Shown: in pieces, positions 17,214 through 35,032 of the stretch
Layout of the letters: the number at the start of each line of letters is the position of its first letter
Position numbering within the stretch: the first letter of the stretch is position 1
NCBI GenBank assembly: GCA_964217375.1
Contig: CAXPJQ010000014.1
Span: 1 to 46,750, forward strand
Direction: 5' to 3'
Length of the DNA stretch: 46,750 bases
Origin: Bdellovibrionales bacterium
GTDB taxonomy: Archaea > Nanobdellota > Nanobdellia > Woesearchaeales > UBA583
Made by a program: the position numbers and the translations under genes
The notes under the pieces: model-generated
The model's input: only the letters and a program-made list of their open reading frames with translations
Databases searched by the model: none
What the model was told of the DNA's origin: nothing

Positions 17214-17649
17214 TTTTCACCTCCGTATCTAATAACTCGTCACCTTCATATAGATTAAAAGTAAAATTATAGTTTTCTCCACCATTATCATATAATCTGG
17301 ATTCAAATTCAATAGAATAAGTTGTTATCTGGTCTGGATATAATTGGTCAAGTTCAATTTTCTCATTTAATCTTACATATCTATTATATGTTCTCCATTT
17401 ATTATCATCATAAACAATTTCTAATTCTGGTTTGATTATTGTTTTACCATCATTTATTATTTGAAATTCAATATTAATATCTTCGTTTCTTGAGAGATTA
17501 TCTGGCATATCTATTTTTTGAAAGTAATGATCTTGTAAAAAAGGAACTTTATTGTAAAACTTAGGACTACCAATAACCATAAATAATAAAACAACCACTA
17601 AAATGATTAATATTATTTGAGCATATCCTTTCTTATTTTTTCTTACCAT
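17194..17649 (-). CDS. N-terminally membrane-anchored beta-rich protein
   Basis: One TM segment (AQIILIILVVVLLFMVI) and a beta-sandwich-like remainder. It overlaps the hsdR stop by 17 nt and the next gene by 20 nt. Confidence 0.5.
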   Translation of the reverse strand: MVRKNKKGYAQIILIILVVVLLFMVIGSPKFYNKVPFLQDHYFQKIDMPDNLSRNEDINIEFQIINDGKTIIKPELEIVYDDNKWRTYNRYVRLNEKIELDQLYPDQITTYSIEFESRLYDNGGENYNFTFNLYEGDELLDTEVKNVQIRE

Positions 17650-20600: not shown

Positions 20601-20797
20601 GAGCTCACAGGGATAGAAGGATTGATTTTTTTTAGAGAGTCTTCTAATTTGTCTTCCAAGATTACATCTTTATAATCTTGTCTCATTGGATTTTCTCCAT
20701 CAAAGGCAATATCTGGACCTGCAAGGTATGAGTATCCTAACTCTTCGAACCATTCAATTGCAGCTTCTTCTACTTGACTCTCTGTGAACTTTTTCAT
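17633..20797 (-). CDS. hsdR: Type I restriction enzyme R subunit
   Basis: N-terminal nuclease motif PDLIVFVNGLPIVVIEFKN. Helicase motif I TGSGKS and DEAH box (VIADEAHRTQ). Motif VI-like LIQAISRVNR. Full length at 1054 aa. Confidence 0.9.
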   Translation of the reverse strand: MKKFTESQVEEAAIEWFEELGYSYLAGPDIAFDGENPMRQDYKDVILEDKLEDSLKKINPSIPVSSIKEAIKKLKIQSSPSLTINNKIFHKYITDGVDVEYKDKNRIKGDKVWLFDKKNLKNNDFCVVNQFTIVEKNNRRPDLIVFVNGLPIVVIEFKNATDEKADIKSAYNQIQTYKNDIPTIFSYNAFTIISDGTFARAGTITADFDRFMSWKTIDGESITNDFMQLETQIKGMFDREKLLEIIHHFILFQDDGENVYKILAAYHQYYATQKAVEKTKLATSSSGTKKIGVVWHTTGSGKSLTMTFYTGKIILELDNPTIVVLTDRNDLDEQLYNTFSLSSDLLRQIPQQAKSRTNLRELLSVESGGIIFTTIQKFMPDEKGDIYPQLSDRRNIVVIADEAHRTQYDLIDGFAKNIRDALPNASFIGFTGTPIEGTDINTPAIFGDYIDVYDMTQSIKDKATVPIYYECRLAKIGLLKDQIPKIEEDFEELTESQELDSKQKLKSKWSRLEALVGSNKRLKLVAKDILKHFDRRREDTGGKAMIVCMSRKICVELYNEIIKLKPEWHNEDNKKGKIKVIMSGSAADPQFMQDHIRNKEGREEIGKRLKNPKDELEIVIVRDMWLTGFDAPCIDTMYVDKPMKGHNLIQAISRVNRVFRNKSAGLIVDYLGIGDMLKKALGIYTQKDRQNIGIDTTEAIALMLEEHEILKEMFHGFDYKKYFKLKKSSELLQFLGQSANFILGVDKDSKKRYLRHTIRLKKAHSLCASSDEALNIAKEIEFMLGVRAILLKFDKHETGEKSLSTIDENLNQLISKAITSEEVVDIFAIAGIDKPDISILSDEFLQDVKSMSYKNLALELLQKLLNDEIKSKLRKNIVMEKKFSEMLEEAIMKYQNKTIETAKVIAELIEIAKQVREAHKRGEKLGLNEDELAFYEALEINDSAVKVMGDEILKTIALELTKTIRDSLTIDWDKKESVRAKMRVYIRRILRKYGYPPDLEKMAVETVMKQAERSCNYIYEESQEQLSSVSTYPSFTETTPMAVAEEKEKYGKKK

Positions 20798-21138
20798 TCT
20801 TTACTTAAATTAGAAACATTAGTATTTATATTTGTTTCTTCTATTGTTATTATTCTTAAATCACTTTTAATTCCAAAAGCATCATATATTTTCTTTCTAT
20901 CTAATACTAAAAAGAAATATGTTCCTATAACTAAATAAATAGCGAACTTAAGTGTTTCTGGACTTAACCATCCATTATTTTTGATAGAAACAATATAATA
21001 GATTAAGATATTGACACTTGACACAATAAGGATTATTAATAATATTAATGAAACTAACCATAATATTAGAACTTTAAATGCCATCTTCCAATTAATCTTT
21101 ACTTTAATTGGTTCCATTGCTTCTATCTTAGTTGACAT
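20794..21138 (-). CDS. Small polytopic membrane protein (114 aa from the internal ATG)
   Basis: The track ORF 20794..21234 overlaps the upstream gene by 107 nt. The ATG at 21138 (MSTKIEA...) reduces this to 11 nt. Two or three hydrophobic spans. 4-nt overlap with the hsdR start. Confidence 0.45.
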   Translation of the reverse strand: MSTKIEAMEPIKVKINWKMAFKVLILWLVSLILLIILIVSSVNILIYYIVSIKNNGWLSPETLKFAIYLVIGTYFFLVLDRKKIYDAFGIKSDLRIITIEETNINTNVSNLSKE

Positions 21139-21322
21139 TTTTTTTCCTCCACAATAAAGGTTGCCCACAGTTTGGACATTGAAACATAGAACCATTAACT
21201 GGATAATTACATCTTGGACACTTATAATATTCATTTTCTCCTTTTGCTATTTTTCCTAAAAGCCAAGCACCCAATGCAAGACCTCCCAATGTTAATAATG
21301 TTTCTTTTGTGTCTTTATCCAT
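21128..21322 (-). CDS. Small TM + zinc-ribbon protein
   Basis: TM segment LLTLGGLALGAWLLGKI followed by CPRCNYP...CPNCGQ. Confidence 0.5.
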   Translation of the reverse strand: MDKDTKETLLTLGGLALGAWLLGKIAKGENEYYKCPRCNYPVNGSMFQCPNCGQPLLWRKKNVN

Positions 21323-21325
21323 TTT

Positions 21326-22549
21326 TTATTCTGGTATGTCAAATACTAATATAGTTAAATATAATTCTTTTTCAGAATCATCTTTATGTTTAAATAAATA
21401 TCTAAACCCAGTTTCATTATCATATTTTATTTCTTTTTTGAAGTTATTATGACCTTTAGCAATATCTGGAATTTGTGATATTACTTTGGACATGTCTTTG
21501 TTTCTATTAAATAAGATTATTGCAGTTTTGCTATCTCTCCAAGAAAGATAACCCAATATTTGGTCAATTGTTTTTAACAAGTTTTCTTTCCCTTTCCAGA
21601 ACTTACATTCACAAATAAATAAGTTTTTACCTTCAGATCTTATTAAAATATCAGTCTTACCTTCATAATTGAATGTCTCTCCTGTTGCTTGACCTTCATA
21701 TTGTCCATTTAATTGAACTAAGAAATGTTGTCTTATACTTTCTTCATCCATTTTAGAGAAAGCTTTTGGACTTCTTTCCATTACATAAGTCATATTAGAA
21801 AGAATCCTTAAAATATTATCATATTCATTTAAATCAATTATTGGTTCTGGTTTTGAATTAGAAGTAACAGTTGGTTTACTAATTACAACTTTTCTTTTTA
21901 CTTCTGGAACTGTATATGTATTTGTACTATCTTCTCTTTTTTTTAATGGAAATCCTAATTCTGAAACTATATCGTGATTTTTCAACAATGTTTCTTTTCT
22001 TTTTTTTATAGTTGATTCAATTAATGAATCTATAGAAGAATTGTAACTTGAAACTTCTTGTTTTATCCACTCTAACCATTTATTGATTTCAGAATAAGTT
22101 CTATCAAATTCAGATTTTAATGCAGAAGTCTCTTTATCTAAAACTGTTATTTCAATTGTTAATTCATCATTTCTTATTTCAGCTTGTGGGGGGTTTGTAG
22201 TATAAGTTGAAGACCTATAATTAAATAAGAAATCATCTCCTTCAAATGGGATATGATATATAACTTTTAAACTTTTAACATAAAAAGGTCTACTTCTATC
22301 CATAATCATTCTTCTTGGATCTTGACTTATATCTACATCTTCTTCTTTTTTGTCAATATATATTTCTTCCTCTTTTAATTCTGGACAATTAAGTAAATAT
22401 TTGTTTAATAGGTATTGTTTGTACTCATCAACATTAATATTTAATATATAATCTTCAATTTGACTATTTATTTCTGCAGAGATTTTATTCTTCTTATCTT
22501 CCAAGAAGTCTCTCAAAATTCCACTATTAAATAATAATCTTGAACTCAT
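21326..22549 (-). CDS. Hypothetical protein with a C-terminal PD-(D/E)xK nuclease-type motif
   Basis: GKTDILIRSEGKNLFICECKFWKG (D...ExK) in the C-terminal third. The N-terminal part is coiled-coil-like with no recognised family. Confidence 0.5.
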   Translation of the reverse strand: MSSRLLFNSGILRDFLEDKKNKISAEINSQIEDYILNINVDEYKQYLLNKYLLNCPELKEEEIYIDKKEEDVDISQDPRRMIMDRSRPFYVKSLKVIYHIPFEGDDFLFNYRSSTYTTNPPQAEIRNDELTIEITVLDKETSALKSEFDRTYSEINKWLEWIKQEVSSYNSSIDSLIESTIKKRKETLLKNHDIVSELGFPLKKREDSTNTYTVPEVKRKVVISKPTVTSNSKPEPIIDLNEYDNILRILSNMTYVMERSPKAFSKMDEESIRQHFLVQLNGQYEGQATGETFNYEGKTDILIRSEGKNLFICECKFWKGKENLLKTIDQILGYLSWRDSKTAIILFNRNKDMSKVISQIPDIAKGHNNFKKEIKYDNETGFRYLFKHKDDSEKELYLTILVFDIPE

Positions 22550-22550
22550 T

Positions 22551-23777
22551 TTATTTCACCCTTATTTCTCCAGACATTAGTTTTGGTAGTAAAGAATCTC
22601 TTATTTGTTTTAGAGATTCTATTTCATCTACAATATTCAGTATTTGATTATATATTGGTTCTAATTCATTAGAAAATTGTTTTGTAATTTTATTCGATTC
22701 AAAAAACTTCATAAATCTGACAGATTTCCCTGCATGCTTAATTGTAGTACCATTCGAATATTCATTAATTGTGTTTTGAATTTGGTTTGATTTCATTAAA
22801 AAATATACCAAAGATTGTTTATAATTTGATTCATTAAGAGGAATTATTTTTTTTATTCCTGTTGAAAAAATTCCTTCAAAACCTACTTTTACAATTCCTA
22901 TTGTCCCATCAAATGATACAATTACATCATTTTTTTCACAAGTTTTATCTGTTTCTATGTCAGTATATAATTCTTCATTTCTCATTCCAGTTAGATTTCC
23001 TACTCTAATAAATATTTTTCCAATTTTCTCAAAATTATAATTATTTCTTCCAGGTTCAATTCCTGTAACAAAATCTAATTCTGTGTTTAAATCTACAACA
23101 TTCCAATCTTTAGGAATTAATCCCAACTCACTTTCAACCATTTCTCCCCCAGAAGATTGATAAGGTTCTCCTTCTTGATTGGGGAAATCGAAATCTACAA
23201 ACCATCTTTTAAAAATTGCTTGTCCAAGTTCTTCTAAATTATCATTGATTTTCTTATTAATCTCTATTTTGTCATCTAACTCAGAGAGTACTTTTGCAAT
23301 TGCTTTTTGTTCTTCAATAGAAGGCAAATTTACTTCTATCAAATCAAAAGTATTTTTAGTTATAGTATCAAACACTGAACCGTGAGTAGAACCTTTAATA
23401 TTTTTCAATTTATACTTTAGTAAATAGTAAATATAATCATTAATACTAACATTATTTATTTCTCTTAAACCATAACAAGATTGGTTAAAAGCCATTTCCT
23501 TTCCTAATTGTGCAATTGCTCCAACTGTACCTCTTGCAGAAATAATTATATCTCCTTTATTCAGTAACTTGGTAGAACTTTCTTTTAATCCTTTTTCTGT
23601 TATTGTTTTTTCAGTTGTGTATACTTTTCGATAATCATCATTAAAATCAACTACAGATAACCAATTAATATCTCCATTCCAATACTCTTTTACGCTTGTT
23701 TTAGGAGTTCCACCCCCAATAATTTGGACTATTTCTGAAAAATGTTTTCTTGACCAATTATTATTCTTAATTTCCAT
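22551..23777 (-). CDS. hsdS: Type I restriction-modification specificity subunit
   Basis: Two target-recognition-domain halves, each followed by a helical spacer (SIEEQKAIAKVLSELDDKIE ; ESLKQIRDSLLPKLMSGEIRV). N-terminal IGGGTPKT motif. Confidence 0.85.
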   Translation of the reverse strand: MEIKNNNWSRKHFSEIVQIIGGGTPKTSVKEYWNGDINWLSVVDFNDDYRKVYTTEKTITEKGLKESSTKLLNKGDIIISARGTVGAIAQLGKEMAFNQSCYGLREINNVSINDYIYYLLKYKLKNIKGSTHGSVFDTITKNTFDLIEVNLPSIEEQKAIAKVLSELDDKIEINKKINDNLEELGQAIFKRWFVDFDFPNQEGEPYQSSGGEMVESELGLIPKDWNVVDLNTELDFVTGIEPGRNNYNFEKIGKIFIRVGNLTGMRNEELYTDIETDKTCEKNDVIVSFDGTIGIVKVGFEGIFSTGIKKIIPLNESNYKQSLVYFLMKSNQIQNTINEYSNGTTIKHAGKSVRFMKFFESNKITKQFSNELEPIYNQILNIVDEIESLKQIRDSLLPKLMSGEIRVK

Positions 23778-24798
23778 TTTCTACCTCCTCAATTTCATCA
23801 ATATTACTTGTGATTATTTCTTTAGCAAATTCTTCAAATAATATTCTAATTTCATAACATTTATTATTATATTTTAATCTCGTGTATAATACCTTATAAC
23901 CTGCATTTAAATCCTCTCCCTCAAAATAAAGATAGTTATTGTTATTAAACTCTTCAATTCCATTTCCCCAATCAATTATTTCAACATCCGTGTCACTTAT
24001 TTTCTCATTCAAAAAACTACCTAATAAATTACTAATTTCTTTTTTATAGTATTGGTCTCTCATATATTTTACAATTTCAGGGTATTTTTCAAATAAATGG
24101 TAATAACTATTCAGTTTTTTAAACAAATCTTCTATAGTATAAAATATAGTTAGATTCTTTTCTTTTTTTTCTTCAAATTCTGTTTCCAATTCAGAAGTAA
24201 AATCACTATCGTTTTCTGTTAATAAATAAAAATAATCAAACTCTTCTTGTATTTCTGATTGTATGAAGGTTTCCCAAATCAAACAATCTTTAAAACCTTT
24301 ATCAGAGCCAGTTGAAGAAATACTAAAGGGTTTTCTTCCTTCAAACACTTTTACATACAATTTTTTTAATACTTCTTCTGATTTTGAAAAATCTAAGTCT
24401 AAGACTTTAATGTAATTTTTACTTTTAATAAAATCAATTACTTTTTTAGAAATGTAATCTTCATATTTAAATGAGTCGTCTGGAATCTTTACCGAAGAGA
24501 AATCACATACTTCCATATTTTTAAATAAATCTATTTTAGGAACAAATGTATCAAATGCATTTTTAAAATTAGTTTTTTTAGATTTAAAGAACTCATCTAA
24601 TGAGACTTGTGTGATCCCTATTGAAATCATATCTTGGAGTTCATTCTCTTCAATGTATTTAATTAAACTATAAAAATTGCCTTTAAAGTTTATTTCTGAA
24701 TAGTCTTTTTCCCAACTTTGATTAACTCTAATAATATTTGTATCTATCAATATAAATGATTTGCCTGTTTGTATTGGAGTTTGAATTATTTGTTCCAT
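23767..24798 (-). CDS. PIN-like (DUF4935-type) putative nuclease inserted between hsdM and hsdS
   Basis: Acidic residues in PIN order: FILIDTNI, QVSLDEF, DKGFKDCLIWE, LLTENDSDF. A C-terminal ~130 aa is of unknown function. Confidence 0.5.
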   Translation of the reverse strand: MEQIIQTPIQTGKSFILIDTNIIRVNQSWEKDYSEINFKGNFYSLIKYIEENELQDMISIGITQVSLDEFFKSKKTNFKNAFDTFVPKIDLFKNMEVCDFSSVKIPDDSFKYEDYISKKVIDFIKSKNYIKVLDLDFSKSEEVLKKLYVKVFEGRKPFSISSTGSDKGFKDCLIWETFIQSEIQEEFDYFYLLTENDSDFTSELETEFEEKKEKNLTIFYTIEDLFKKLNSYYHLFEKYPEIVKYMRDQYYKKEISNLLGSFLNEKISDTDVEIIDWGNGIEEFNNNNYLYFEGEDLNAGYKVLYTRLKYNNKCYEIRILFEEFAKEIITSNIDEIEEVENGN

Positions 24799-24804
24799 TT
24801 TACA

Positions 24805-26322
24805 TCAAAACTCATAGCCCAACCCTCCTAAGTTTTTACGAATATCTTCTTCAAGTTCTCTGGATTTTGCAAATTGTTCTGCAAGTTCAGAAGTTAGTCT
24901 ATTCATTTTGTCTTCAAATGGTTCTTCATCTTCTTCAATATCAGCAACTCCTACATATCTTCCAGGAGTTAAGATGTGTTCGTGTTTTCTAATCTCTTCA
25001 AGCGTTGCACTTTTGCAGAATCCTTTTTCATCTTCATATGTTCCTTCTTTTGTTCCTCTCCAAATATGATAAGTATCTGAAATCTTTGCAATATCTTCTG
25101 GAGTTAGTTCTCTATGTTTTCTATCTACTAATTCTCCCATATGCCGAGCATCAATAAATAAAACTTCTCCATTTCTTTTTCTATCACGAGCAACAAACCA
25201 TAAACAAACAGGGATTCCAGTACTATAAAATAACTTATCTGGAAGTGCTACAATACAGTCTACTTTGTCATCCTCAACAATTTGTTTTCTAATCTCACCT
25301 TCATTAGAAGTATTAGAACTCATTGAACCATTTGCTAAAACAAAACCAGCCACTCCTTTAGGTGATAAGTGATGAATAAAATGTTGTACCCAAGCAAAGT
25401 TTGCATTGCCCACAGGAGGGATACCATATTTCCATCTTACATCTTCTTTTATTCTTTCTCCACCCCAATCTGAAATATTAAACGGAGGATTTGCAATGAT
25501 GAAATCTGCCTTTAAATCTTTATGAACATCATTGTGGAAGGTATCAGCGTGATGTGGTCCAATATTTCCCCTAATTCCTCTAATTGCAAGATTCATTACA
25601 CATAACCTCCAAGTAGTTGGATTACTTTCTTGTCCATAAATTGAAAGGTCATCTAATTTTCCACCGTGTGCTTCTACAAACTTCTCTGATTGTACAAACA
25701 TACCACCACTACCACACGCAGGGTCGTAGATTCTTCCTTTATATGGTTCAAGCATTTCAACTAATAACTCTACAATAGATTTAGGTGTATAGAATTCTCC
25801 ACCACCTTTTCCTTCAGCAGAAGCAAACCTTCCCAAGAAATACTCATAAACTCTACCCAGTAGGTCCTTTCCTCTATTTTCAGAGTCTCCAAGCATAATA
25901 GAACTGATTAAATCAATAATTTGCCCAAGTCTTTGTTTATCAAGAGCAGGTTTAGAATAATCTTTTGGCAATACTCCTTTAAGTGATGGATTTTCTCTCT
26001 CAATTACAACCATAGCTTCATCTAAGATTTGACCAATAGTTGGTAGTTTAGCACTTTTTTGAATATAACTCCATCTTGCAGAAGGTGGAACCCAGAAACC
26101 GTTCTTTGCAATATACTCATCCTTCTCTTCTGGATCTGCATATTCTTCTTTTTGTAATTCTTCATAGATTTCTTCAAAACTATCTGAAATGTATTTTAAA
26201 AATAAAAGACCTAAAATAACATGCTTATATTCTGCAGGGTCCATGTTATTTCTCATCATATCAGCTGCTTTCCACAACTTTTCTTCAAATCCTATATTGG
26301 CTCCATTACCATTACTTTTCAT
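24805..26322 (-). CDS. hsdM: Type I restriction-modification N6-adenine DNA methyltransferase subunit
   Basis: HsdM N-domain ([36 protein letters not shown]), SAM motif [10 protein letters not shown] and catalytic motif IV IANPPFN. Confidence 0.9.
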
Positions 26323-26358
26323 CTTAAAAATCTTTCACTTAACTTATTTATAAAAGTT

Positions 26359-26379
26359 ACTTATAACTAATTTATAAGT
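26359..26379. promoter_or_regulatory. 8-bp inverted repeat (acttataa-ctaat-ttataagt) between the wHTH gene and hsdM
   Basis: Read directly. It lies 37-57 nt upstream of the hsdM start (26322) and 46 nt downstream of the wHTH stop. Confidence 0.25.
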
Positions 26380-26424
26380 TATCTACAATTTATTTTCAAG
26401 AATAAATGATTTTGGGATAAAAAA

Positions 26425-26688
26425 TTAAAGATTTTTCAACTCTTCGCTGATTTTTTCACCAATTTCTGTTAATTTGTACAACTTTCCAAGGTGACTATCT
26501 GGGTTTAAACATACTACAACACCCTTCTCACTTAGTACTTTTAACACATTACTAACATTTCCAAAGTTCAACTGAGTTTCTTTACGAATCAACATTGGAG
26601 TTTTTGGAACATTTAATGCTTTAACAACTTTAACTCTTTGACTTCCCGAAAGAACCCAAGAATATAATTCCAATATCTTTTCATCCAT
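26425..26688 (-). CDS. Small winged-helix transcription regulator
   Basis: 87 aa. HTH-like segment PMLIRKETQLNFGNVSNVLKVLSEKGVV followed by a wing (GKLYKLTEIG). Confidence 0.55.
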   Translation of the reverse strand: MDEKILELYSWVLSGSQRVKVVKALNVPKTPMLIRKETQLNFGNVSNVLKVLSEKGVVVCLNPDSHLGKLYKLTEIGEKISEELKNL

Positions 26689-26788
26689 AAATTATTTGCA
26701 AGTCATCTATAAATAAAAAGAAAGTTGCGTTTGAATTGTAATTGAATTGCAAAAGATTTTTAAAACAATAAAAACACAAGATAGTATT

Positions 26789-27319
26789 ATGAGTAAAAAA
26801 GATGAAAAAAATGAAAAAAGTTGGTTTAGAAGACATCCTATTTTAACGGTTATATTAGGATTAGTTATCTTAGGAATGATTGGAAGTTTCTTAGAAAAAT
26901 CTGAGGAAGCAGTTAAAACTAATAGTTTAAGTTTAGATTCTCAAACAGATTTAACCCAAATCATTCTTCCAAATGATAAAATACCCACAAAATACTACCT
27001 AAGTGAAAAAGAATTTGAGTTAAATGAAAGTGGATTTATTTCAGGTTATAAAAAAAACTTAGCTGAATCTGATGGATTTAGTGGAACTGCTATAACAATT
27101 ACATTTAGCAAATTCTCAGATACATCTCAATCTTTAAACTATTATAATAAATTAACAAATGAAATTAAAGATGCAAGAGGTTATGAAGAAAAAACAGTTT
27201 ATTCTCCATTTGAATGTTTTGCTTATCAAAAAGAATTAGGAATGAATAATCAAAATGAAGTAATTTGTTATAAAGATAATATTGTATTTAGTATAAAAGG
27301 AATTGGTTTTATGTATTAG
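26789..27319 (+). CDS. Membrane-anchored hypothetical protein
   Basis: The track ORF starts at a TTG (26747), but the ATG at 26789 (MSKKDEK...) is more plausible. One TM segment (ILTVILGLVILGMIGSFL) and an extracytoplasmic domain. Confidence 0.45.
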   Translation: MSKKDEKNEKSWFRRHPILTVILGLVILGMIGSFLEKSEEAVKTNSLSLDSQTDLTQIILPNDKIPTKYYLSEKEFELNESGFISGYKKNLAESDGFSGTAITITFSKFSDTSQSLNYYNKLTNEIKDARGYEEKTVYSPFECFAYQKELGMNNQNEVICYKDNIVFSIKGIGFMY

Positions 27320-27366
27320 TATGATTTAGAAGATTTATTTGATTTACAAAAAGAACATATCTTAAA

Positions 27367-27732
27367 TTAATAATATAATATTTTTGATATTTTATCATTA
27401 TACTTTCTTAACTTTTTTAATAGATTAAATGTTGGCATTTTAAGCTCTGACCTCAAAGTTACTTCTGTTGCAATTATAGATCTTTCTCTTTCAATTCTTG
27501 TTATCATTATTGATTTAATTAATTCCTTTCTTCTAAAAATTATTTCATCTGCAATACGATTTACAGTTGTATGAGAAACATTATGTTTTCTTGCTAATTG
27601 AGACCTGTTCCAAAAAAAACCATATTTATTTATTGTATGATTAATATCCTCTTTTAATCTTCTTTTTGCTCTATATCTTAATTGTCCATTATTTTTGTGA
27701 GTATTAAGATTATAATATACAAACTTTTTCAT
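27367..27732 (-). CDS. Small HTH DNA-binding protein
   Basis: HTH-like RSQLARKHNVSHTTVNRIADEI. The internal ATG at 27732 (MKKFVYY...) is preferred over the Cys/Phe-rich N-terminal extension of the track ORF. Confidence 0.4.
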   Translation of the reverse strand: MKKFVYYNLNTHKNNGQLRYRAKRRLKEDINHTINKYGFFWNRSQLARKHNVSHTTVNRIADEIIFRRKELIKSIMITRIERERSIIATEVTLRSELKMPTFNLLKKLRKYNDKISKILYY

Positions 27733-27893
27733 AGAATTATTATGATTTTCAACTTTTATATATTTATTTTTACAAAATTGAACGCAACATAAGAGCAAAA
27801 AAATAAAGATGTATATACAATGTTTATACATTTAGCTTTTTCTTTATAAATAAATAAGAAAAATACTATCAAATGTATAACTTTAATATAGAT

Positions 27894-28259
27894 TCACATT
27901 TTGGCAGTAAGTTTCTTGATATAATTAGTTAATGAACCAATAATTTCATCCAACATTTCAGACAGTCTATCATAAGTTCTGGAACTTATATATTCTAAAT
28001 CTTTAGCTACTAATAATTGATATTCTACTTCTTTCGCAGAACCTAAAGAGTGATGGAGGAATTGTTTATAGTCTTTTATAGTATTTCTCCCCGATCCTTC
28101 TGCAATATTTGAGCCAATACTTGTAACTGCTCTTTTTATTTGATTAGTTAAAGAGAATTGCTCATCCTTTGGGAAGTCCTTTGTTGCTTTGTAAACTTCA
28201 AGAGTTAATTGATGAGCTCTTTTAAAAAAGTTTAAATCTTTATAATTTACTGCTACCAT
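27894..28259 (-). CDS. Four-helix-bundle protein (23S rRNA intervening-sequence protein / Avd-like family)
   Basis: Family-typical YKDL.F.KRAHQLTLEVYKATKDFPKDEQFSLTNQIKRAVTSIGSNIAEGSGR...EVEYQL. Confidence 0.75.
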   Translation of the reverse strand: MVAVNYKDLNFFKRAHQLTLEVYKATKDFPKDEQFSLTNQIKRAVTSIGSNIAEGSGRNTIKDYKQFLHHSLGSAKEVEYQLLVAKDLEYISSRTYDRLSEMLDEIIGSLTNYIKKLTAKM

Positions 28260-28260
28260 T

Positions 28261-30867
28261 TTACTCTAATAGTTTATATTCTCCTTTTCTTGGTTCAAAT
28301 ATTACTCCTTCATTTTTTAAATCATATAAGGTTTCATTTATATTCTCACAGTAGTTAGGGATAAGATCTTTTATATCTTCTATTTTTAATAACTTTTTAT
28401 TATTAAATAAATCTATTAACATCTCTTTTGTAGATAGTGTAGTATTAGTAGAGTTAGTAGTGTTAGTATTATTAGTAGATAGAGTAGATATATTTTTTTC
28501 TTGGTTATTACCTTCATTATTTTTTGTTATTTTATTACTCCTACTTACCTCTTTTACTTCTCCTTCCTCTACATCCTCTACTGTGAGATATTTATCAAAT
28601 TCTTTTTTCTGAATTATTTTTATCAATTCTTCTTTAGTAAATGTATAATATGTATATCCTCCAGATCTTTTTTTCTTAAAAATTTGACTATGATTTGTAA
28701 ATAATCTTTTTCCCAAATGTACATTAAAAGCAGCTCTATCAGTATGATATTCTAAATAATCACTATTATTTATAGCATATGAAGTTATCTCTTTAACTCC
28801 TAAAGTACATTTATTTGAACTACTATTTTTAGATAATTCATATATTGATTTTAATGCAATAAAGTCCCAATTATCTTCTATGTTAGATTCTTTCTGCTTG
28901 TTTACATTATCCTTTAGAAAATCATTAATCTCTTCAAAGACATCTTCTCCAATGATTTTTGCAATAGTTAGAATTGATTCTACATTTTCTAAGTCTCTAT
29001 TATTAAAATCTTTAAAATAACTTTCATCATAAGTTTTCTCTATTAATTTCCAATTATCTAAAGTCCAAATATGTAAATCATCAACTATGTCTTGCCAGAT
29101 TTTATCAGTCTCTTTTATTTTCTTTCTAGATATCTTAGGATTATTTGTTTTAATCATATTAATCTTAATACATCTTGATTCAGTAACTTCTGGCAATCCA
29201 ATAATATTATTGATTACAACTGGTGAATATCCATTATAACTATTTACTCTATGATTTTTCCCATCTGCTTTGTAACTTTTACTACCTTTTTTATAGAAAA
29301 CTTCAATAAATTGTCTTCCTGCAATTTTTTTATCTTCTGATAGGTTATCATAATTGTCAATTACTAAAGTACCACAAGTGCTTTCAACTACTCGCTCCAT
29401 ACTTGCGGGAGTAATATCTCCATGTATAGCATTATATGTTAATAAAGAATAAATCTTTGCTTGTGTAGATTTTCCAGACCCATGTTCAGCTTGAAAATAC
29501 ATTCTTCCCTTTGCATTAAATATAGGACAGGAATAATTTGAGATTATATCTGCTGCAATGATTGAATGAATTCTAGGGTCTTCGTGATATACATATAACT
29601 TATTTAATCTTTTTATTTCTTCAAAAAGTTCTCTTATATTTATTGGTTCATAATCTTCATCTAAATAATTTTGAATACTTTGATTCGACCATGGATTACT
29701 AATAACTGCTATGTCAAATTTGTTTCTATATGATAGTTTAAACTTATCTCTAATCTCATCATTTTCCTTTGACCATACAGTGTGTATGTTTCTATCTGAT
29801 GTAATTAAAATATCTATAAGTTCATCAGAACTTTCTTTTTGCACTGAGTTGCCAAAATAAAAAACATCATTATGAATTCCAGTTCCAATTCTATCAATTT
29901 TGTTTTTCTCATTAGATAATAAATCTTTAATCTTAGCTTTACCTTTATTATTCTCTTTTTTTAATGATTTAATGTGATTATTATAATTCTTTAAGGCTTT
30001 TTTATATGTGCCTTTCTTGTAGTTCATAGTTGCAGATTTCCATTTTCCAATCTTACAAGAACTCATAATCTCATCAATCAAATCAAAGTCAATAAAACCC
30101 TTCATTAATAGTTTATCTACTAAAGATAATTCTACTTCACTTCTATTTCCTTTTTCAATAGTTGTATTGTAAAGAGTTCTTAATGATTTATTTTTATTGA
30201 TAGTCTCTTCCCAAGAAGATTCTTTTTTTACTTCTTTTTGACTTATAACTTTTAGAACATTTTTATTATTTAATTTGATATTTTCTTTAGTTAGTTCTTT
30301 AAAATATAAAGTTTTAAGTTGAAACTTGTCTTTCTTGTAATGAAATGATTCGGGAATTCTAAATATCCTTGCAAGATCATTAACTCCTTTGTCAACAGTA
30401 TTTGAAATATTATTATATAAAAAGTAAATAAAATCTTTAACAGTTTGTTGATTTTCAACTTTCCATTCAATATCTATTAAAATATGATACCCATTCCCAC
30501 TTTCTGCAATATATGAATATAATATATTATTTTCATCTAAAAAATGTTTTACTTTCTCAAAGTCTTCTTTTTTTGCATTATCTAAATCAATAAAAATAAA
30601 ATTGATTCTATCAATAAATCCATTTCCTCTTTTTCTTTTATTTAATGGGTTGAAATTGATAAAAACTCCCCAACCTTCTTTGTTTTTTGTTTTTATATTA
30701 GAGATTAAACTTTCAACATTTCCATCATTAGAAAAATATGAAATTGGAAGATTTTTGTTTAAATCTTTATTCTTATCATTAAAAGATATAACTTCAAAAA
30801 AAGATTTTTTAGTATTTCTTTTGTTAATAATATAATCTAAAACTTCTTTCATGTTATTCTCCTCCAT
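28261..30867 (-). CDS. Replication protein: archaeo-eukaryotic PrimPol domain + SF3/D5-like P-loop helicase + C-terminal wHTH (pRN1 ORF904-like architecture)
   Basis: PrimPol motifs FIFIDLD (DxD) and ESGNGYHILI (sGxGxH). Walker A AEHGSGKST and Walker B-like TLVIDNYD. C-terminal wHTH-like LYDLKNEGVIFEPRKGEYKL. Confidence 0.7.
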   Translation of the reverse strand: MEENNMKEVLDYIINKRNTKKSFFEVISFNDKNKDLNKNLPISYFSNDGNVESLISNIKTKNKEGWGVFINFNPLNKRKRGNGFIDRINFIFIDLDNAKKEDFEKVKHFLDENNILYSYIAESGNGYHILIDIEWKVENQQTVKDFIYFLYNNISNTVDKGVNDLARIFRIPESFHYKKDKFQLKTLYFKELTKENIKLNNKNVLKVISQKEVKKESSWEETINKNKSLRTLYNTTIEKGNRSEVELSLVDKLLMKGFIDFDLIDEIMSSCKIGKWKSATMNYKKGTYKKALKNYNNHIKSLKKENNKGKAKIKDLLSNEKNKIDRIGTGIHNDVFYFGNSVQKESSDELIDILITSDRNIHTVWSKENDEIRDKFKLSYRNKFDIAVISNPWSNQSIQNYLDEDYEPINIRELFEEIKRLNKLYVYHEDPRIHSIIAADIISNYSCPIFNAKGRMYFQAEHGSGKSTQAKIYSLLTYNAIHGDITPASMERVVESTCGTLVIDNYDNLSEDKKIAGRQFIEVFYKKGSKSYKADGKNHRVNSYNGYSPVVINNIIGLPEVTESRCIKINMIKTNNPKISRKKIKETDKIWQDIVDDLHIWTLDNWKLIEKTYDESYFKDFNNRDLENVESILTIAKIIGEDVFEEINDFLKDNVNKQKESNIEDNWDFIALKSIYELSKNSSSNKCTLGVKEITSYAINNSDYLEYHTDRAAFNVHLGKRLFTNHSQIFKKKRSGGYTYYTFTKEELIKIIQKKEFDKYLTVEDVEEGEVKEVSRSNKITKNNEGNNQEKNISTLSTNNTNTTNSTNTTLSTKEMLIDLFNNKKLLKIEDIKDLIPNYCENINETLYDLKNEGVIFEPRKGEYKLLE

Positions 30868-31147
30868 TACTTTCTAAAAACTCACAAAATAAGTTTGTAA
30901 ATCTATATCGATATAACATAGTAGCACTTTCTTCTCTTTCAATAACTTTATATTCACATAATTCTGAGAGTATTGTTTGACTTCTTTCATTTGAAACAAA
31001 TAAAAAATCTGCAATATTATCTCTATTAATTCCTCTTCTCCTACAATAGTATAACTTCTTTAATTGAGTTAACCAAGGCAATGAAGAGAAAACCTTATAT
31101 TGTTTGAAATCTCTTTCATTATTAGGTGGATTAATCTTGTCGTTCAT
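30854..31147 (-). CDS. Small winged-helix protein
   Basis: 97 aa. RDNIADFLFVSNERSQTILSELCEYKVIERE. Overlaps the replicase start by 14 nt. Confidence 0.45.
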   Translation of the reverse strand: MNDKINPPNNERDFKQYKVFSSLPWLTQLKKLYYCRRRGINRDNIADFLFVSNERSQTILSELCEYKVIEREESATMLYRYRFTNLFCEFLESNGGE

Positions 31148-31423
31148 TTAATCTTCACCTCTTTGTTCTGATTCTTTATACTTCAATAAATACCAGGAGT
31201 ATAAATCATTTAACATTGTGATTAATTCTGGAATCTCTTTTATGTTAAAATTAACAGTATTCTTATTCCATTCTCCATCTTTGTTGTATGACTTAGATAA
31301 TCCTAAAGTCATAATTTCATACTCATCTCCTTCTTTTTGTACCTTGTTTTTCCATAAAGTTGTTTCAACAAGTTTAACTCTTTGTTTTCTAATTGGTTTA
31401 TTGTTCTCCATTTTCTTTTGCAT
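31148..31423 (-). CDS. Small conserved protein, paralogue of 39832..40080 (function unknown; a PC4/YdbC-like ssDNA-binding fold is only a guess)
   Basis: Motifs shared with the paralogue: W-K-x-K, EY, (S/N)Y(N/K)(K/D)..G...K.T..FNI.(E/D)IP..I..L...YS. Confidence 0.45.
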   Translation of the reverse strand: MQKKMENNKPIRKQRVKLVETTLWKNKVQKEGDEYEIMTLGLSKSYNKDGEWNKNTVNFNIKEIPELITMLNDLYSWYLLKYKESEQRGED

Positions 31424-31538
31424 TTAAATAATAAATAAGACTTACTTTGATAAGTCCAGAAAGCTTTTGACCATTCCTTTCTGCATATTTCTCGGCTCTT
31501 AAAGCCACTTCATCATCTAATGATATTGTTTTAATCAT
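31398..31538 (-). CDS. Ribbon-helix-helix (CopG/Arc-like) protein
   Basis: From the internal ATG at 31538: MIKTISLDDEVALRAEKYAERNGQKLSGLIKVSLIYYL (beta-strand plus two helices). It is the first gene of the replication operon, as in pRN-type plasmids. Confidence 0.55.
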   Translation of the reverse strand: MIKTISLDDEVALRAEKYAERNGQKLSGLIKVSLIYYLNAKENGEQ

Positions 31539-31602
31539 TGTAATAAAACCATTAAAAAGCATTAAGTTTAAATAAACAGGAATATTTATAATCAATTAAG
31601 TT

Positions 31603-32556
31603 ATGAAAGAAATCCCAAAAATAGGCCTAAAATACAAGTATTCTTTTAAAATATATCAGTTATTATTAAAACAAGAGAATGGACTAACTTTAAAACAAAT
31701 CATTTCTAATTTATGGGATATCAAAACAGAAATATCAGAATTTATTTCTGTTAAATGTATGCAATGTGGTGAGGATAATTTGAAAAAGTCTTCAAACTTT
31801 ACAAAATGGATAAATGAATTACCTTTTTACTTGAATAATAATTTAGATCTTGATTTTATTGATATTAGATGTTCAAAGTGTCATAAAAGGTTAATAAAAA
31901 CAAGAAAAAGAAAATTAATCAAAAAATTGGATTATAAAAGAATATTTGATGTTGATTTGCCTGAAACTGTTTTTAAGAGCAAGTCGGGTCATTTGTTAGC
32001 TCGAGAGATTGACGAATTGTTAGATAACGAATTAATTGAAAAAATAGAAAATAAATATTACCTCAATTTATTTACATTTATTTTTTTGATTACTAATATT
32101 GAAGGGGACCCTGGTGTTTTAGAGTGTGAAATTGCAAATACAAAAATACCTCTTTTTTTTATTAATGATTATATTTGTCCTAATTTAAATAAAATAAATA
32201 ATATAAATGATATTTTTAGAAATATTTTTAATTCTCTTATTATAATTAATCCACAAGAATTTGAGAAAAATATTATTGGAAACGAGACACAAACATATTT
32301 TAGTAAAACCGAGAAAAAATTGTTAATCGAATTACAAAGAAAATGTTGGTTATTTGAAAAAGAAACTCAAAAATCTTCAATTTTTGATTTATATAAATCC
32401 ATATTGGTTCAGACTAATTTTAAACAATATAAAAAAAACGAATTAAAAGATGCAAAATTAATTGCAGAAGAATTCAAATTAAATGATATTGCAAATTTTA
32501 TTTATCAAAATGTTAAAAATACTGAATCTTTATTATTAAATAAATATAGAAAATAA
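31603..32556 (+). CDS. Hypothetical protein with a CxxC...CxxC zinc ribbon
   Basis: CMQCGE...CSKCHK. No family recognised. Its stop abuts the tRNA gene. Confidence 0.45.
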   Translation: MKEIPKIGLKYKYSFKIYQLLLKQENGLTLKQIISNLWDIKTEISEFISVKCMQCGEDNLKKSSNFTKWINELPFYLNNNLDLDFIDIRCSKCHKRLIKTRKRKLIKKLDYKRIFDVDLPETVFKSKSGHLLAREIDELLDNELIEKIENKYYLNLFTFIFLITNIEGDPGVLECEIANTKIPLFFINDYICPNLNKINNINDIFRNIFNSLIIINPQEFEKNIIGNETQTYFSKTEKKLLIELQRKCWLFEKETQKSSIFDLYKSILVQTNFKQYKKNELKDAKLIAEEFKLNDIANFIYQNVKNTESLLLNKYRK

Positions 32557-32628
32557 AGCTATCGGCGGGAGTTGAACCCGCGACCTCTTGCCTACCAAGC
32601 AAGCGTTCTACCACTGAACTACGACAGC
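32557..32628 (-). tRNA. tRNA-Thr (anticodon GGT), intact, element-borne, no encoded CCA
   Basis: Manual cloverleaf: GCTGTCG-TA-GTTC-AGTGGTA-GAAC-G-CTTGC-TTGGTAG-GCAAG-AGGTC-GCGGG-TTCAACT-CCCGC-CGATAGC-T. All stems pair, with one G-U in the acceptor. Confidence 0.85.
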
Positions 32629-32674
32629 AATAAGGATTATAATAATAAAACTCTCAATTGATTTTAAAAGTTTT

Positions 32675-34711
32675 CTAATTAATTGATTTGAATATGTCTT
32701 CAAACCAAATTAATGAACCTTCTGCAAGTTTCTTTGTTGTAAGATTTACATCTCTTGAATGTCTTATTGCATTTCTAAAATCGTTAATATGAACAAAGTG
32801 TTTTTCTAAGTCAGATTTTGATTTAAAGAAGTCTTCAAATTTATCCCAGTTAGTTCTTATTGTTTTGAAATATTGTAAAATTGTGAAAAAGTCAATAGGA
32901 TTCATTTCTTCTCTTTTTTCAGAAGGATTTTTGTTAAGATGAAGTTCTATTCTTTCTTCAACTCTCTCTCTTAACTCCTGTGAGATAGAAGAATTATAAA
33001 AATCATTACCTAATGTTTTAACAATTAAACTTCTCATATTCTTCTCAAAACTATCAATTAACTTTTCTTCATTTGATGTCATTTCTTTTTCAATGGAAGT
33101 AAAATCTCCAACTAAACTTTTTATCTCTTCTACTATCTTGGTTGCTCTATAGTTTAAGAATTGTTCAAAGTTATCTTCTTCGATTCCAGTTTCATTCAAA
33201 TTATCTATTAAATGAGTTTTCAATGTATTATTGATGGAATTATTTTCAATTAATGATAAGTATTCTTTTGGACTTTTCTTCCCTACATTCTTATTTGTAC
33301 CAGATGGCATAAACATAATATTTGCAATACTATCTTTTAATCCATTAAGTTCATTATGGCTTGCTCTTATATGTTCTTGTGGAAAGATATGATGGTATTC
33401 TTTTGCATTAAACTTTGCAAAATTGTTGAATACTATCTCAGAATTATTAAAAATATTCTTAGGTTTTTTAGATGCAAGGATACATAATAATGTTTTACAG
33501 AAAGCATTTCTAAGGGAGTATTTTTGCTGTATTATTCTTTCAACAGTTACTTGTGGGATAAGGAAATTAAACTTAACTTCTTTATTATCTACAATATTAT
33601 TGATTTGTTTTATATCTTCTACTATTTTTCCTTCTACTGAAGAACTGAATCTATTTGAAACTGCAGCTTTCCAGAACCAATTAACTAACTCTTGAATTTG
33701 ATTTTGATTCTCACTCTTACCTTTGATATTATAAAAAAAGTAACTTATAGGAACAAGCATTGAAGGAAATGGTAATATTTTTGAAGATCCTATGTTTAGA
33801 TTTGTCTTCAAAAAATCAATACTTCTTTTTATTGCTTCCATAGATTCTTTCCAATTATTTTCAATTTCTTCTCTTGTTAAAGATAAAATATCTTTTCTAT
33901 GACAACCACCTTTCACATTTGTGGATATAACTTGAAGTAATGTGATATCATTGATGCCATCATATTTTTGTTCTTTTAGTTCTTTTTGAAATATGTGAAG
34001 TCTTTCTTTTAGGTTAAATGATTTAGACCAGGTTTTTGCAACCATTAAATCAACTACATTTAATATCTGTCCTGAATTGTTAATTCTCTCGAAAATCTGA
34101 CATACTACATCAATTGGTTGGTTTTTAACATATATAACTGAGAACTCATAGTTTTTGAAAGCAGAAATTACTTTATTAAATATTTGAAATCTTGTTTCAT
34201 TTAGCCCTCTTGCTATTGTATAATTCTCAAATATTATTTCCTTTAATGATAAATATCTTCTTCCTTCTTCATCAATTAAATCTTCTTCATTTTCTCCAGA
34301 CATACTTTTGAACTCTTCTGTGTCTAAATCAAAATAAATATCTAATTTTTTATTTTTTATTTGACCATTTACTTTAATCTTAATCTCTGCATTCTCTACA
34401 CTTGCAAATAATGAAGTAATTCTTTGTTGCCCATCTAATACATAGTTTACTTCTCCAGAATAAGTAGAATCAATTGGGATATTGCCTATATTTCTGTGAG
34501 TTAATTCTTGGTTTGTCTCCCAAAATAAGAAAGAACCTATTGGATAATGTTGATATATACTATCCAATAATTTGATAACTTGGCTTTTATCCCATACAAA
34601 ATCTCTTTGAAAATCAGGTATTTTTAATCTACCATCTTTAATCTCATTTATTAAAGAATCAAACTTTTTTCTATCTGGTTTTATCTTCTCACCATTCATA
34701 ATATAATCCAT
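32675..34711 (-). CDS. GmrSD-like type IV restriction-type protein: DUF262 (ParB-like, DGQQR) + DUF1524-like His-Me finger + C-terminal HEPN (Rx4H)
   Basis: IPDFQRDFVW and VLDGQQRITSL (DUF262). KEYHHIFPQEHI...NIMFMPSGTNK (DUF1524-like). C-terminal FRNAIRHSRD (Swt1-type HEPN-like). The start is placed at ATG 34711 (alternatively 34699) rather than the track's 34852. Confidence 0.65.
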   Translation of the reverse strand: MDYIMNGEKIKPDRKKFDSLINEIKDGRLKIPDFQRDFVWDKSQVIKLLDSIYQHYPIGSFLFWETNQELTHRNIGNIPIDSTYSGEVNYVLDGQQRITSLFASVENAEIKIKVNGQIKNKKLDIYFDLDTEEFKSMSGENEEDLIDEEGRRYLSLKEIIFENYTIARGLNETRFQIFNKVISAFKNYEFSVIYVKNQPIDVVCQIFERINNSGQILNVVDLMVAKTWSKSFNLKERLHIFQKELKEQKYDGINDITLLQVISTNVKGGCHRKDILSLTREEIENNWKESMEAIKRSIDFLKTNLNIGSSKILPFPSMLVPISYFFYNIKGKSENQNQIQELVNWFWKAAVSNRFSSSVEGKIVEDIKQINNIVDNKEVKFNFLIPQVTVERIIQQKYSLRNAFCKTLLCILASKKPKNIFNNSEIVFNNFAKFNAKEYHHIFPQEHIRASHNELNGLKDSIANIMFMPSGTNKNVGKKSPKEYLSLIENNSINNTLKTHLIDNLNETGIEEDNFEQFLNYRATKIVEEIKSLVGDFTSIEKEMTSNEEKLIDSFEKNMRSLIVKTLGNDFYNSSISQELRERVEERIELHLNKNPSEKREEMNPIDFFTILQYFKTIRTNWDKFEDFFKSKSDLEKHFVHINDFRNAIRHSRDVNLTTKKLAEGSLIWFEDIFKSIN

Positions 34712-34785
34712 ATACAACTTATTTATAAATATATTTCTCTCTACTGTGAGCCAAGAAATGACAACCCTTTTAAAATCTGCTTGCG

Positions 34786-34803
34786 ATATCGTATATACGA
34801 TAT
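34786..34803. promoter_or_regulatory. Perfect 18-bp palindrome atatcgtatatacgatat, 8 nt upstream of the Int(N) ATG
   Basis: Read directly. The sequence is self-complementary, and its 15-nt core recurs at 12946-12960. Confidence 0.55.
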
Positions 34804-34811
34804 TTTGAAAA

Positions 34812-35021
34812 ATGGGACGAATTAAGAAAAATCGAGTAGTTGTGGCAATCAAGTTAGATACAGAATTAAAAAATCTCTTAGATGCCAGAAAAGTGGAGAA
34901 GAGCTCCTTTATTAATGAAATACTGTGGAAACACTTCGCATTAGAGAGGAATATTCCCCAATCTCAAAACTCCTATCTCAGCTCTCCCGAAAGCCTTACC
35001 AATGCAACGCTCTACCACTGA
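34812..35021 (+). CDS. Int(N): N-terminal fragment of the partitioned integrase; stands alone as a 69-aa RHH-like protein
   Basis: VVVAIKLDTELKNLLDARKVEKSSFINEILWKHF resembles a ribbon-helix-helix fold. The ORF reads through the attR core (LTNATLY) and stops 5 nt beyond it, in host tRNA sequence. Confidence 0.65.
   Translation: MGRIKKNRVVVAIKLDTELKNLLDARKVEKSSFINEILWKHFALERNIPQSQNSYLSSPESLTNATLYH
34996..35016. repeat. attR core: 21-bp direct repeat ttaccaatgcaacgctctacc
   Basis: Identical to 12861-12881. Confidence 0.85.
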
Positions 35022-35032
35022 GCCACAGTCGC
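34996..35032 (-). pseudogene. 5' portion (nt 1-38) of host tRNA-Thr(GGU)
   Basis: The reverse complement reads GCGACTG-TG-GCTC-AGTGGTA-GAGC-G-TTGCA-TTGGTAA, then diverges into element sequence. Its acceptor 5' strand is complementary to CAGTCGC at 12827-12833. Confidence 0.75.

Follow-up and report, generated by a model that had tools for sequence, protein, structure and literature searches.

The stretch of DNA analysed in this study, referred to here as the window, comprises the 46,750 nt of contig CAXPJQ010000014.1 (assembly GCA_964217375.1, positions 1 to 46,750) and holds an integrated element, the host tRNA-Thr(GGU) gene that this element splits, and a second, intact tRNA-Thr(GGU) gene that lies inside the element. 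The element occupies 12861..34995 (22,135 bp, counting one copy of a 21-bp core). A perfect direct repeat of 21 bp, TTACCAATGCAACGCTCTACC on the plus strand, marks its two ends at 12861-12881 and 34996-35016, and joining 34995 to 12861 yields a single uninterrupted integrase open reading frame (ORF) of 355 amino acids (aa) on the plus strand. The genes that flank the element are cellular.

The split host gene, the integrase and the element-borne tRNA

The core repeat is part of a host tRNA-Thr(GGU) gene whose two pieces now lie 22 kb apart, at 35032->34996 and 12881->12826, in agreement with the claim of an earlier note on this DNA that the element disrupts a tRNA-Thr of the isoacceptor that it carries. 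The 5' fragment (34996..35032, minus strand), which marks attL, starts with the acceptor 5' strand, reaches the anticodon loop and reads GCGACTGTGGCTCAGTGGTAGAGCGTTGCATTGGTAA from 35032 to 34996, its last 21 nt being the core repeat. The predicted 5' strand, GCGACTGTGGCTCAG, has a single exact occurrence in the window, at 35018-35032 on the minus strand. The 3' fragment (12826..12881, minus strand), which marks attR, consists in order of the core at 12861-12881, the anticodon-stem 3' strand, the T-arm, the acceptor 3' strand and the discriminator; it ends in ...TTGCATTGGTAATGCAGAGGTCGCGGGTTCAATTCCCGCCAGTCGCT and has no acceptor 5' strand. Rfam recognised a partial tRNA at 12834-12888 on the minus strand with 42.3 bits, covering model positions 10-63 only. 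Joined to each other, the two host pieces give a perfect 72-nt tRNA-Thr(GGU).

Neither junction contains a rebuilt gene. At attL the core borders on GGCTTTCGGGAGAGC, non-tRNA sequence that represents the antisense of the Int(N) coding sequence, and neither Rfam nor ARAGORN with intron search found a tRNA 3' half after the 5' fragment. At attR the exact core corresponds to tRNA positions about 18-38, from the D-arm to the anticodon loop, and an element-derived extension of 7 bp (12882..12888, minus strand; GCTGAGC vs GCTCAGT in the host, two mismatches) prolongs the similarity. The nine bases upstream of this D-arm mimic, CAGCCGATT, are unable to pair with the acceptor 3' strand CAGTCGC, and the bases at the acceptor positions of attR, CAGCCGA, do not pair with it. 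With the extension included, attP thus mimics tRNA positions about 10-38, in antisense to the integrase gene. Because attP holds neither acceptor-bearing end of the tRNA, both junctions are predicted to be dead, with the host tRNA-Thr(GGU) split and rebuilt at neither of them.

It could be argued that each host half yields its own transcript and that trans-splicing unites the two, as in the split tRNAs of Nanoarchaeum. The hosts of related elements are labelled Nanoarchaeota or Woesearchaeota, the break falls at the anticodon loop near the canonical 37/38 splice position, and the acceptor strands of the two halves pair on co-folding. However, co-folding of the halves with 60-nt flanks produced no evident leader/trailer bulge-helix-bulge, the duplicate D-arm and anticodon strand in front of the 3' half would compete in folding, and the 3' half has no evident promoter. 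In addition, the still intact integrase ORF shows that the insertion that gave rise to the halves is recent. Trans-splicing is therefore considered very improbable.

Integration splits the integrase gene into Int(N) and Int(C). Int(N) (34812..35021, plus strand) is an ORF of 69 aa that crosses the core and continues into the host tRNA. Its N-terminus is ribbon-helix-helix (RHH)-like, MGRIKKNRVVVAIKLDTELKNLL, a motif common to the full-length relatives, and its homologue in a closely related sister element (P0153) is 97% identical. Int(C) (12863..13744, plus strand) is the catalytic domain; its open frame begins in the core, while the ORF as listed covers 13022-13744. It matches PF16795, annotated as "archaeal phage integrase", at 1.4e-26 with profile positions 3-160 of 161 covered, and it matches the catalytic-domain structures 3VCF, 4DKS and 3UXU of the integrase of Sulfolobus spindle-shaped virus 1 (SSV1) at E about 5e-16. 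R224, K258, K301, R304, R327 and Y337 are invariant in the integrase alignments, and we take these to be the catalytic residues assigned in SSV1. The core encodes LTNATLY within the integrase ORF, which places attP inside the integrase's own gene. As one integrase ORF is restored when the element ends are joined, the arrangement is a classical "suicidal" SSV-type integration. The assignment of the element to the SSV type, made earlier from the letters alone, is borne out by the PF16795 match, the SSV1 structures and the ORF restored over the joined ends.

Two further sequences near the core may be regulatory or recombination sites. A palindrome, ATATCGTATATACGATAT, lies at 34786..34803, 9 nt upstream of the integrase start codon, and a second copy of the motif that it contains, CGTATATACGATAT, lies at 12946..12963, within the integrase ORF and about 65 bp inward from the core. 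With 0.11 occurrences expected by chance, the motif is present at these two positions and nowhere else in the window; it is palindromic at 34786-34803, and its two copies flank the att core in the circular form. A similar motif is found near the junction of a relative with 45% integrase identity (L016). Both copies are candidates for operators or arm-type sites to which the RHH-like integrase N-terminus may bind.

Three other assemblies bear on the state of the insertion site, as in each of them base 1 of the core is precisely where the contig with the flanking gene 11923-12762 starts. In these contigs (L001, L002 and L004, from other samples and from the metagenome-assembled genome (MAG) GCA_041240545.1) position 1 corresponds to window position 12881. 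A break right at the core edge is seen in contigs from SRR28144572, SRR28144574 and SRR15371423. Two left-hand contexts that share the core and the host 3' half would give such a branch in an assembly graph, and the contig starts therefore suggest that occupied and empty, or differently occupied, sites coexist in the samples.

The only tRNA that ARAGORN found in the window is a tRNA-Thr(ggt) of 72 nt at 32557..32628 on the minus strand, inside the element, and the search with introns allowed gave no further tRNA in the 46.7 kb. Rfam RF00005 covers it over the full model (1-71) with 70.9 bits and E=1.3e-13. It folds as a complete cloverleaf with every stem position paired, an anticodon loop of TTGGTAG, T as discriminator and no encoded CCA. 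ARAGORN, Rfam and the element boundaries thus agree with the earlier description of a complete 72-nt cloverleaf with a GGT anticodon within the element; its coordinates were right, and the strand (minus) is supplied here as a correction. The difference from the host gene in both stems, from which it had been argued that the tRNA is not a duplicate of the target, proved exact: the acceptor stem is GCTGTCG vs GCGACTG in the host tRNA, and the anticodon stem is CTTGC vs TTGCA. Identity between the two tRNAs is 53/72, and their differences include seven compensatory double changes and no broken pair.

The internal tRNA could in principle be the att junction, with a rebuilt target, of a second nested or tandem element, and homology between the window and the sister element does break beside it. 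However, no third partial tRNA copy exists in the window, where the matches of 10 nt or more are the two host halves and one chance 10-mer. In addition, both acceptor strands of the element tRNA are unlike those of the host halves, and only a single integrase gene is present. The absence of the third copy led to the rejection of this explanation, which is hardly credible.

The sister element and other integrase relatives

A full HMMER search gave 308 integrase relatives at E<=1e-3, whereas word-indexed protein searches gave 2 and 11. Loci of the relatives were taken from genomes, metagenomes and exact-protein look-ups; the look-up with the ATG-started Int(C) returned nothing useful, and neither did viral contigs searched with the profile of the integrase and the patterns of the tRNA and of attP. 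In the full-length relatives the linker after the RHH-like N-terminus is a translated tRNA segment, and attP therefore sits in the same place across the family. The linker peptides are recognisable as tRNA arms, with GSNP or WDSNPR from the T-arm and SSVVERYIGN from the D-arm and the Thr anticodon loop, and the tRNA segment occurs in either orientation (P0006, P0015, P0016, P0020, P0023, P0036, P0154 and P0157). The target of such an integrase, and the sub-location within it, can therefore be read from the protein sequence alone.

The closest relative is the sister element (L008/L015 and L032/L033), of about 21.8 kb and in a different host (the CAYSDY01 and Ga0334889/90 bins), whose integrase is 97-98% identical to that of the window. 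Its host flanks carry ribosomal-protein genes on one side and genes for a RIO kinase and an aminoacyl-tRNA synthetase on the other. The insertion is intergenic (about 9990-10030 in L008 and about 10185-10200 in L032), the two junctions share only the 10-bp ACATTGGTAA, and the host flanks are not tRNA, so that the sister sits at a secondary, non-tRNA site. This site has only ACATTGGTAA in common with attP, which puts the crossover at the anticodon loop. The insertion site is a small hairpin, TACATTGGTAATGTA, that resembles an anticodon stem-loop, and the host flanks repeat ATTAAATGAAT on both sides. The attP of the sister still mimics the D-arm and anticodon stem of tRNA-Thr(GGU), with the sequence GCTGAGTGGTAGAGCGCGACATTGGTAA.

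The sister also carries a tRNA-Thr(GGU), at L032 c[7712..7824], between a variable ORF and a GmrSD gene as in the window. Default ARAGORN found no tRNA there, and the sister was at one point taken to lack one; this was overturned by alignment, by ARAGORN with intron search and by Rfam (60.1 bits). At 37/38 the gene is interrupted by an intron of 41 nt, for which a canonical bulge-helix-bulge can be drawn with a 4-bp central helix and two 3-nt bulges holding the splice sites; in the minimum-energy fold the central helix is 3 bp long. Elements like this one could bring an intron-bearing tRNA allele into a host. Identity between the sister and window tRNAs is 58/72 (81%), and the 14 differences consist of six compensatory base-pair changes and two unpaired positions, with no broken pair. 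As all 12 stem substitutions are compensatory, the element cloverleaf is under purifying selection, which is the one indirect sign that integrants might need this tRNA to survive. The L008 MAG with the sister is titled "uncultured Methanosarcinales archaeon", in contrast to all other relatives, whose MAGs are labelled Nanoarchaeota or Woesearchaeota; either an error in binning or labelling or a wider host range could account for this.

More distant relatives fall on both sides of the question of whether the target is rebuilt. In L036 (39% integrase identity) the target is again tRNA-Thr(GGU) in antisense and is not rebuilt at the Int(C) junction, which on the tRNA strand reads ...CTCTTAGTGCA, TTGGTAA and GGTAGAAGTCCCGAGTTCAAATCTCGGATGTTGCT in succession, so that the 3' half of a host Thr(GGU) gene abuts element DNA that is not tRNA. 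L036 has its own complete tRNA-Thr(GGU), c[1230..1301], placed 3 nt after the integrase stop and with flanks unrelated to those in the window. It is 71/72 identical to the window tRNA, and L036 1225-1301 matches at 97% over 77 nt including 5 nt of trailer. L016 likewise shows an antisense, non-rebuilding Int(C) junction, with another host tRNA-Thr(GGU) 3' half, on a contig without the element interior. In L036 and L016 only the anticodon loop is common to attP and attB. Two other groups use tRNA-Thr(GGU) in sense orientation and are predicted to rebuild it, namely L038-L040 (integrase P0003, 44%) and L034/L035 (integrase P0006, 42%), and no tRNA of their own was found on these short contigs. 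The free attP of P0006 holds a complete sense-oriented tRNA-Thr(GGU) 5' half, GCTGCTATAGCTCAGTGGTAGAGCGTTACATTGGTAA, inside the integrase ORF. An intact tRNA stands at the junction in L009, L037 and L041 (35-42%, tRNA-Met) and in L011 (33%, tRNA-Phe), and the sampled interiors of these elements contained none. All non-rebuilding members with enough sequence thus carry a cognate tRNA, while rebuilding members have none in the sampled parts. The pairing of this integrase with a tRNA-Thr, which the earlier note proposed to look for in related elements, is present both in the sister and in the distant L036.

The main alternative explanation of these data is that the tRNA is incidental cargo, acquired from an earlier host by imprecise excision or recombination, and that another decoder of ACY codons (ACU and ACC) lets the host tolerate the loss of its gene. 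The isoacceptor match would then reflect the integration site and not a need. The tRNA of the sister in a non-tRNA site fits this view, as do the position of the window tRNA at the border of a variable segment (31417-32593), the resemblance of the element tRNAs to host-type tRNA-Thr variants at other junctions, and signs of exchange, the window tRNA being closer to that of L036 than to that of the sister in spite of the distant L036 integrase. All the stem substitutions are compensatory, however, so that the cloverleaf is under selection, and the sister intron has a site that can be drawn as a canonical splice motif. The distribution over rebuilding and non-rebuilding members also speaks against incidental carriage, and most archaeal chromosomes have non-redundant sets of tRNAs (PMC3293823). 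On balance this explanation is unlikely.

Cargo of the element and its host

No virion families (capsid, portal, terminase or tail) were recognised in the element by Pfam or PHROGs. It has the appearance of an integrative plasmid rich in defence genes, although it is possibly an unrecognised archaeal virus. A tailed prophage had been suspected from the sizes of the ORFs and was rejected, since the 1054-aa ORF is HsdR and not a tape-measure protein. This gene belongs to a type I restriction-modification operon (17633..26322, minus strand; Pfam and PADLOC) with hsdR at 17633-20797, hsdS at 22551-23777 and hsdM at 24805-26322. Inserted in the operon are a candidate defence gene, PDC-S54 (21326-22549, 4.9e-156), and two ORFs without known function. 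Directly upstream of the tRNA and on the same strand lies a GmrSD/HEC-05-like defence nuclease gene (32675..34699, minus strand; PF03235 at 1e-30, PADLOC PDC-M55C and HEC-05). Its start is probably ATG 34699 or 34711 and not TTG 34852; the sister gene is called at 674 aa, and an exact-protein look-up of the TTG-started ORF returned nothing useful. A 317-aa ORF without family matches (31603..32556, plus strand) ends against the tRNA 3' end. The sister has an unrelated 245-aa helix-turn-helix gene at this position, and the segment is variable, with homology between the two elements broken between 31417 and 32593.

The remaining cargo includes a candidate replication protein of 868 aa (28261..30867, minus strand) with a weakly primase/polymerase-like N-terminus, for which the only match is phrog_2478 at 7e-5, with none in Pfam, NCBIfam or PADLOC; it is kept in the sister as an 863-aa gene. 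A uracil-DNA glycosylase superfamily protein (13737..14201, minus strand; PF03167, 4.5e-11) adjoins Int(C), and a bAvd-like protein is encoded at 27894-28259, with no reverse transcriptase that would indicate a diversity-generating retroelement seen in the element. Helix-turn-helix proteins are also among the element genes.

These genes are relevant to the idea that the tRNA serves the element, either by boosting its own translation or by replacing tRNA-Thr destroyed by an anticodon nuclease, as has been proposed for phage tRNAs. The element is rich in defence genes (type I restriction-modification, GmrSD/HEC-05 and PDC-S54), and anti-defence roles of phage tRNAs are discussed in PMC10865867. 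However, the share of ACY among Thr codons is lower in the element genes (49%) than in the host flanks (57%). The element thus has no special codon need for tRNA-Thr(GGU), and the decoder matters to the host; an explanation from codon usage was rejected on these figures. In addition, no anticodon nuclease was recognised when the proteins of the element and flanks were scanned with Pfam and PADLOC, and a role in the service of the element leaves unexplained why the sole tRNA matches the isoacceptor split through attP in at least two lineages. We regard such a role as quite improbable.

The G+C content of about 25% and the titles of the MAGs with integrase relatives (Nanoarchaeota, Woesearchaeota and Nanoarchaeia) point to a host of the DPANN type. 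Three features of the host flanks were recorded in addition. A protein of 730 aa (1855-4047, plus strand), in which a P-loop kinase, a metallophosphatase and an RNA ligase of the T4 Rnl1 type are fused, resembles the bacterial RNA-repair enzyme Pnkp, with TIGR04075 at 1.8e-36, which is below the family cut-off; a putative tRNA-repair activity near the element is possible. On the other side, ORF 35110-36549 (minus strand) encodes a 479-aa product with a weak GH42-like region and contains, at 35980-36411, about 36 tandem 12-nt units encoding a Ser/Asp/Gly-rich acidic tract. A contig from another sample (L006) ends inside this tract, and an exact-protein look-up of the gene gave nothing useful. 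Lastly, two 209-nt copies, 90% identical and 306 nt apart, lie at 411-925 (plus strand) inside ORF 369-1793 and represent a recently duplicated protein repeat in this flanking gene.

Proposed replacement of the host tRNA gene by the element

The reading favoured here, to which a probability of roughly 0.7 is assigned, is "disrupt-and-replace" integration by an archaeal SSV-type element whose tRNA compensates for the host gene that it splits. The integrase of the circular element recombines the attP in its own gene (...LTNATLY...) with the host tRNA-Thr(GGU) gene in its anticodon-loop region, leaving two dead tRNA halves 22 kb apart and a split integrase gene. The element tRNA-Thr(GGU) would then take over the reading of ACU and ACC. 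A difference in the loop may shield this tRNA from the element's own integrase: the presumed 7-bp overlap reads TTGGTAG in the window and L036 tRNAs, or is interrupted by an intron after TTGGTA in the sister, vs TTGGTAA in every attP and attB seen. Such self-protection is proposed because cleavage by the SSV1 integrase falls on the anticodon-loop borders (PMC8371274) and because overlap mismatches are strongly deleterious to tyrosine recombinases (PMC10865867). As split integrase pseudogenes are unable to promote excision (PMC7253208), the integrase fragments would not release the element unaided, and its tRNA would become the working gene of the cell. Loss or decay of the part of the element that bears the tRNA would then be selected against, so the arrangement would stabilise the element, and over time the host tRNA gene would be replaced horizontally with orphan tRNA halves left behind.

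The tRNA kept in the sister and the near-identical tRNA in L036 strengthen the case for compensation, which on these comparisons appears well supported. Compensation had been suggested in the earlier note, and the split and unrebuilt target, the non-duplicate tRNA and the relatives uphold it in part. The part that has to be modified concerns necessity, as the sister sits at a non-tRNA site and still carries its tRNA; the pairing thus looks like a trait of the lineage and not a necessity of each insertion.

Several points weigh against compensation. The scope of the tRNA inventory is the 46.7-kb window, and the host may have another tRNA-Thr(GGU) or a UGU tRNA able to decode the whole ACN box. 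The sister keeps its tRNA though its present insertion disrupts none. L036 and L016 were each judged from one junction, in the case of L016 from a contig without the interior, and the tRNA-bearing elements are related, so that they amount to one or two evolutionary events and not three. The window and sister tRNAs are 81% identical while the flanks of the tRNA region are 92-95% identical at the nucleotide level, and the window tRNA is near-identical to that of L036 despite an integrase identity of 39%. This suggests that the tRNA moves as a cassette between elements, and its acquisition for another reason is possible.

Replacement of a broken tRNA is established in bacteria. In actinobacteriophages (Fionnbharth and further phages of Cluster K4/L; Guerrero-Bustamante & Hatfull 2024, PMC10865867) tRNA-dependent lysogeny has been shown: the core of these mycobacteriophages is 10 bp, the host tRNA is not reconstructed, an isotype-matched phage tRNA is essential for lysogeny, and the phages make use of secondary attB sites. 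An earlier case cited in PMC10865867 is the prophage Lj965 of Lactobacillus johnsonii. "Break it and replace it" is proven so far only in bacterial viruses, and no report of archaeal or SSV-type tRNA-dependent lysogeny was found in the literature on that term or in targeted searches. The suggestion in the earlier note that the compensation logic had not been described thus stands for archaeal SSV-type elements, while in bacteria the logic was already known. The element of the window resembles the phages in its tyrosine integrase, its host tRNA target, a core (here 21 bp) too short or misplaced to rebuild the tRNA, a tRNA with matching isotype in the window, the sister and L036, and, in the sister, a secondary site that shares about 10 bp or less. 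It differs from them in its archaeal host, in an SSV-type integrase with attP inside the ORF and a gene split on insertion (the phage integrases are lambda-like with a separate attP), in having no recognisable virion genes by which to count as a temperate phage, in the intron of one replacement tRNA variant, and in a core that lies on the 5' side and in antisense. The requirement for the tRNA is experimental in the phages and is inferred here. Such differences between otherwise similar strategies suggest convergent evolution of tRNA-dependent integration.

Among archaeal elements, SSV1, pT26-2, pTN3 and the TKV elements (PMC8371274, PMC7253208) share with the present element the PF16795 domain, an attP in the integrase ORF, the split into Int(N) and Int(C), a tRNA gene as target and a crossover at the anticodon loop. 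SSV-type and bacterial elements normally carry in attP the tRNA segment from the crossover to one end of the gene, and one junction regenerates the gene (PMC8371274). In the attP of pTN3 this is the tRNA's 5' half and in other described cases the 3' half, and an uninterrupted tRNA is restored (PMC8371274). Here, in contrast, neither junction is a tRNA, the sole complete tRNA is internal, and it is a separate gene that the element carries. The mimic in the window lies on the 5' side of the anticodon loop, as in pTN3-like integrases that use a 5' tRNA half as attB, but its attP is antisense and without an acceptor strand and cannot supply a functional 5' half or a promoter. A pTN3-like attP, with a complete sense 5' half that would give a hybrid tRNA from the integrase promoter, is absent from the window and is instead the design of P0006 on L034, which should rebuild its target gene.

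A locus in Caldiarchaeum described in 2012 (PMC3293823) is a suggestive counterpart. It concerns the same isoacceptor, tRNA-Thr(GGU): a 5' tRNA fragment stands orphaned close to another, complete tRNA-Thr that contains an intron, with recombinase-encoding DNA between them, and the locus is likewise heterogeneous within a natural population. The insertion there is only 1.8 kb, however, and it was read as pNOB8-type with a reconstituted tRNA; a replacement borne by the element was not proposed.

The data presented in this study would matter in several ways. The standard account, as given in a 2021 review of archaeal tyrosine recombinases (PMC8371274), is that integration into a tRNA gene restores that gene, and a lineage that does not rebuild its target and brings a spare gene instead contradicts it. 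Dependence of integration on a carried tRNA would extend to archaea as the second domain of life, to a different family of integrases and to an element that is not a virus. The replacement may be nearly irreversible, because insertion destroys the integrase gene. For annotation, a tRNA inside a mobile element can be the essential copy of the cell in such genomes, and half-tRNAs beside integrase fragments should not be scored as functional genes. More broadly and more tentatively, elements with self-splitting integrases and cognate tRNAs might permanently replace the tRNA genes of DPANN hosts, leaving orphan halves and intron alleles and being immune to themselves through G38 or an intron; if this were true, it would be an observed route to tRNA gene turnover and intron gain, and a source of raw material for the split tRNA genes of Nanoarchaeota. 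For archaea with small genomes, the arrangement offers a mechanism for the horizontal replacement of tRNA genes, for scattered tRNA fragments and for the spread of introns.

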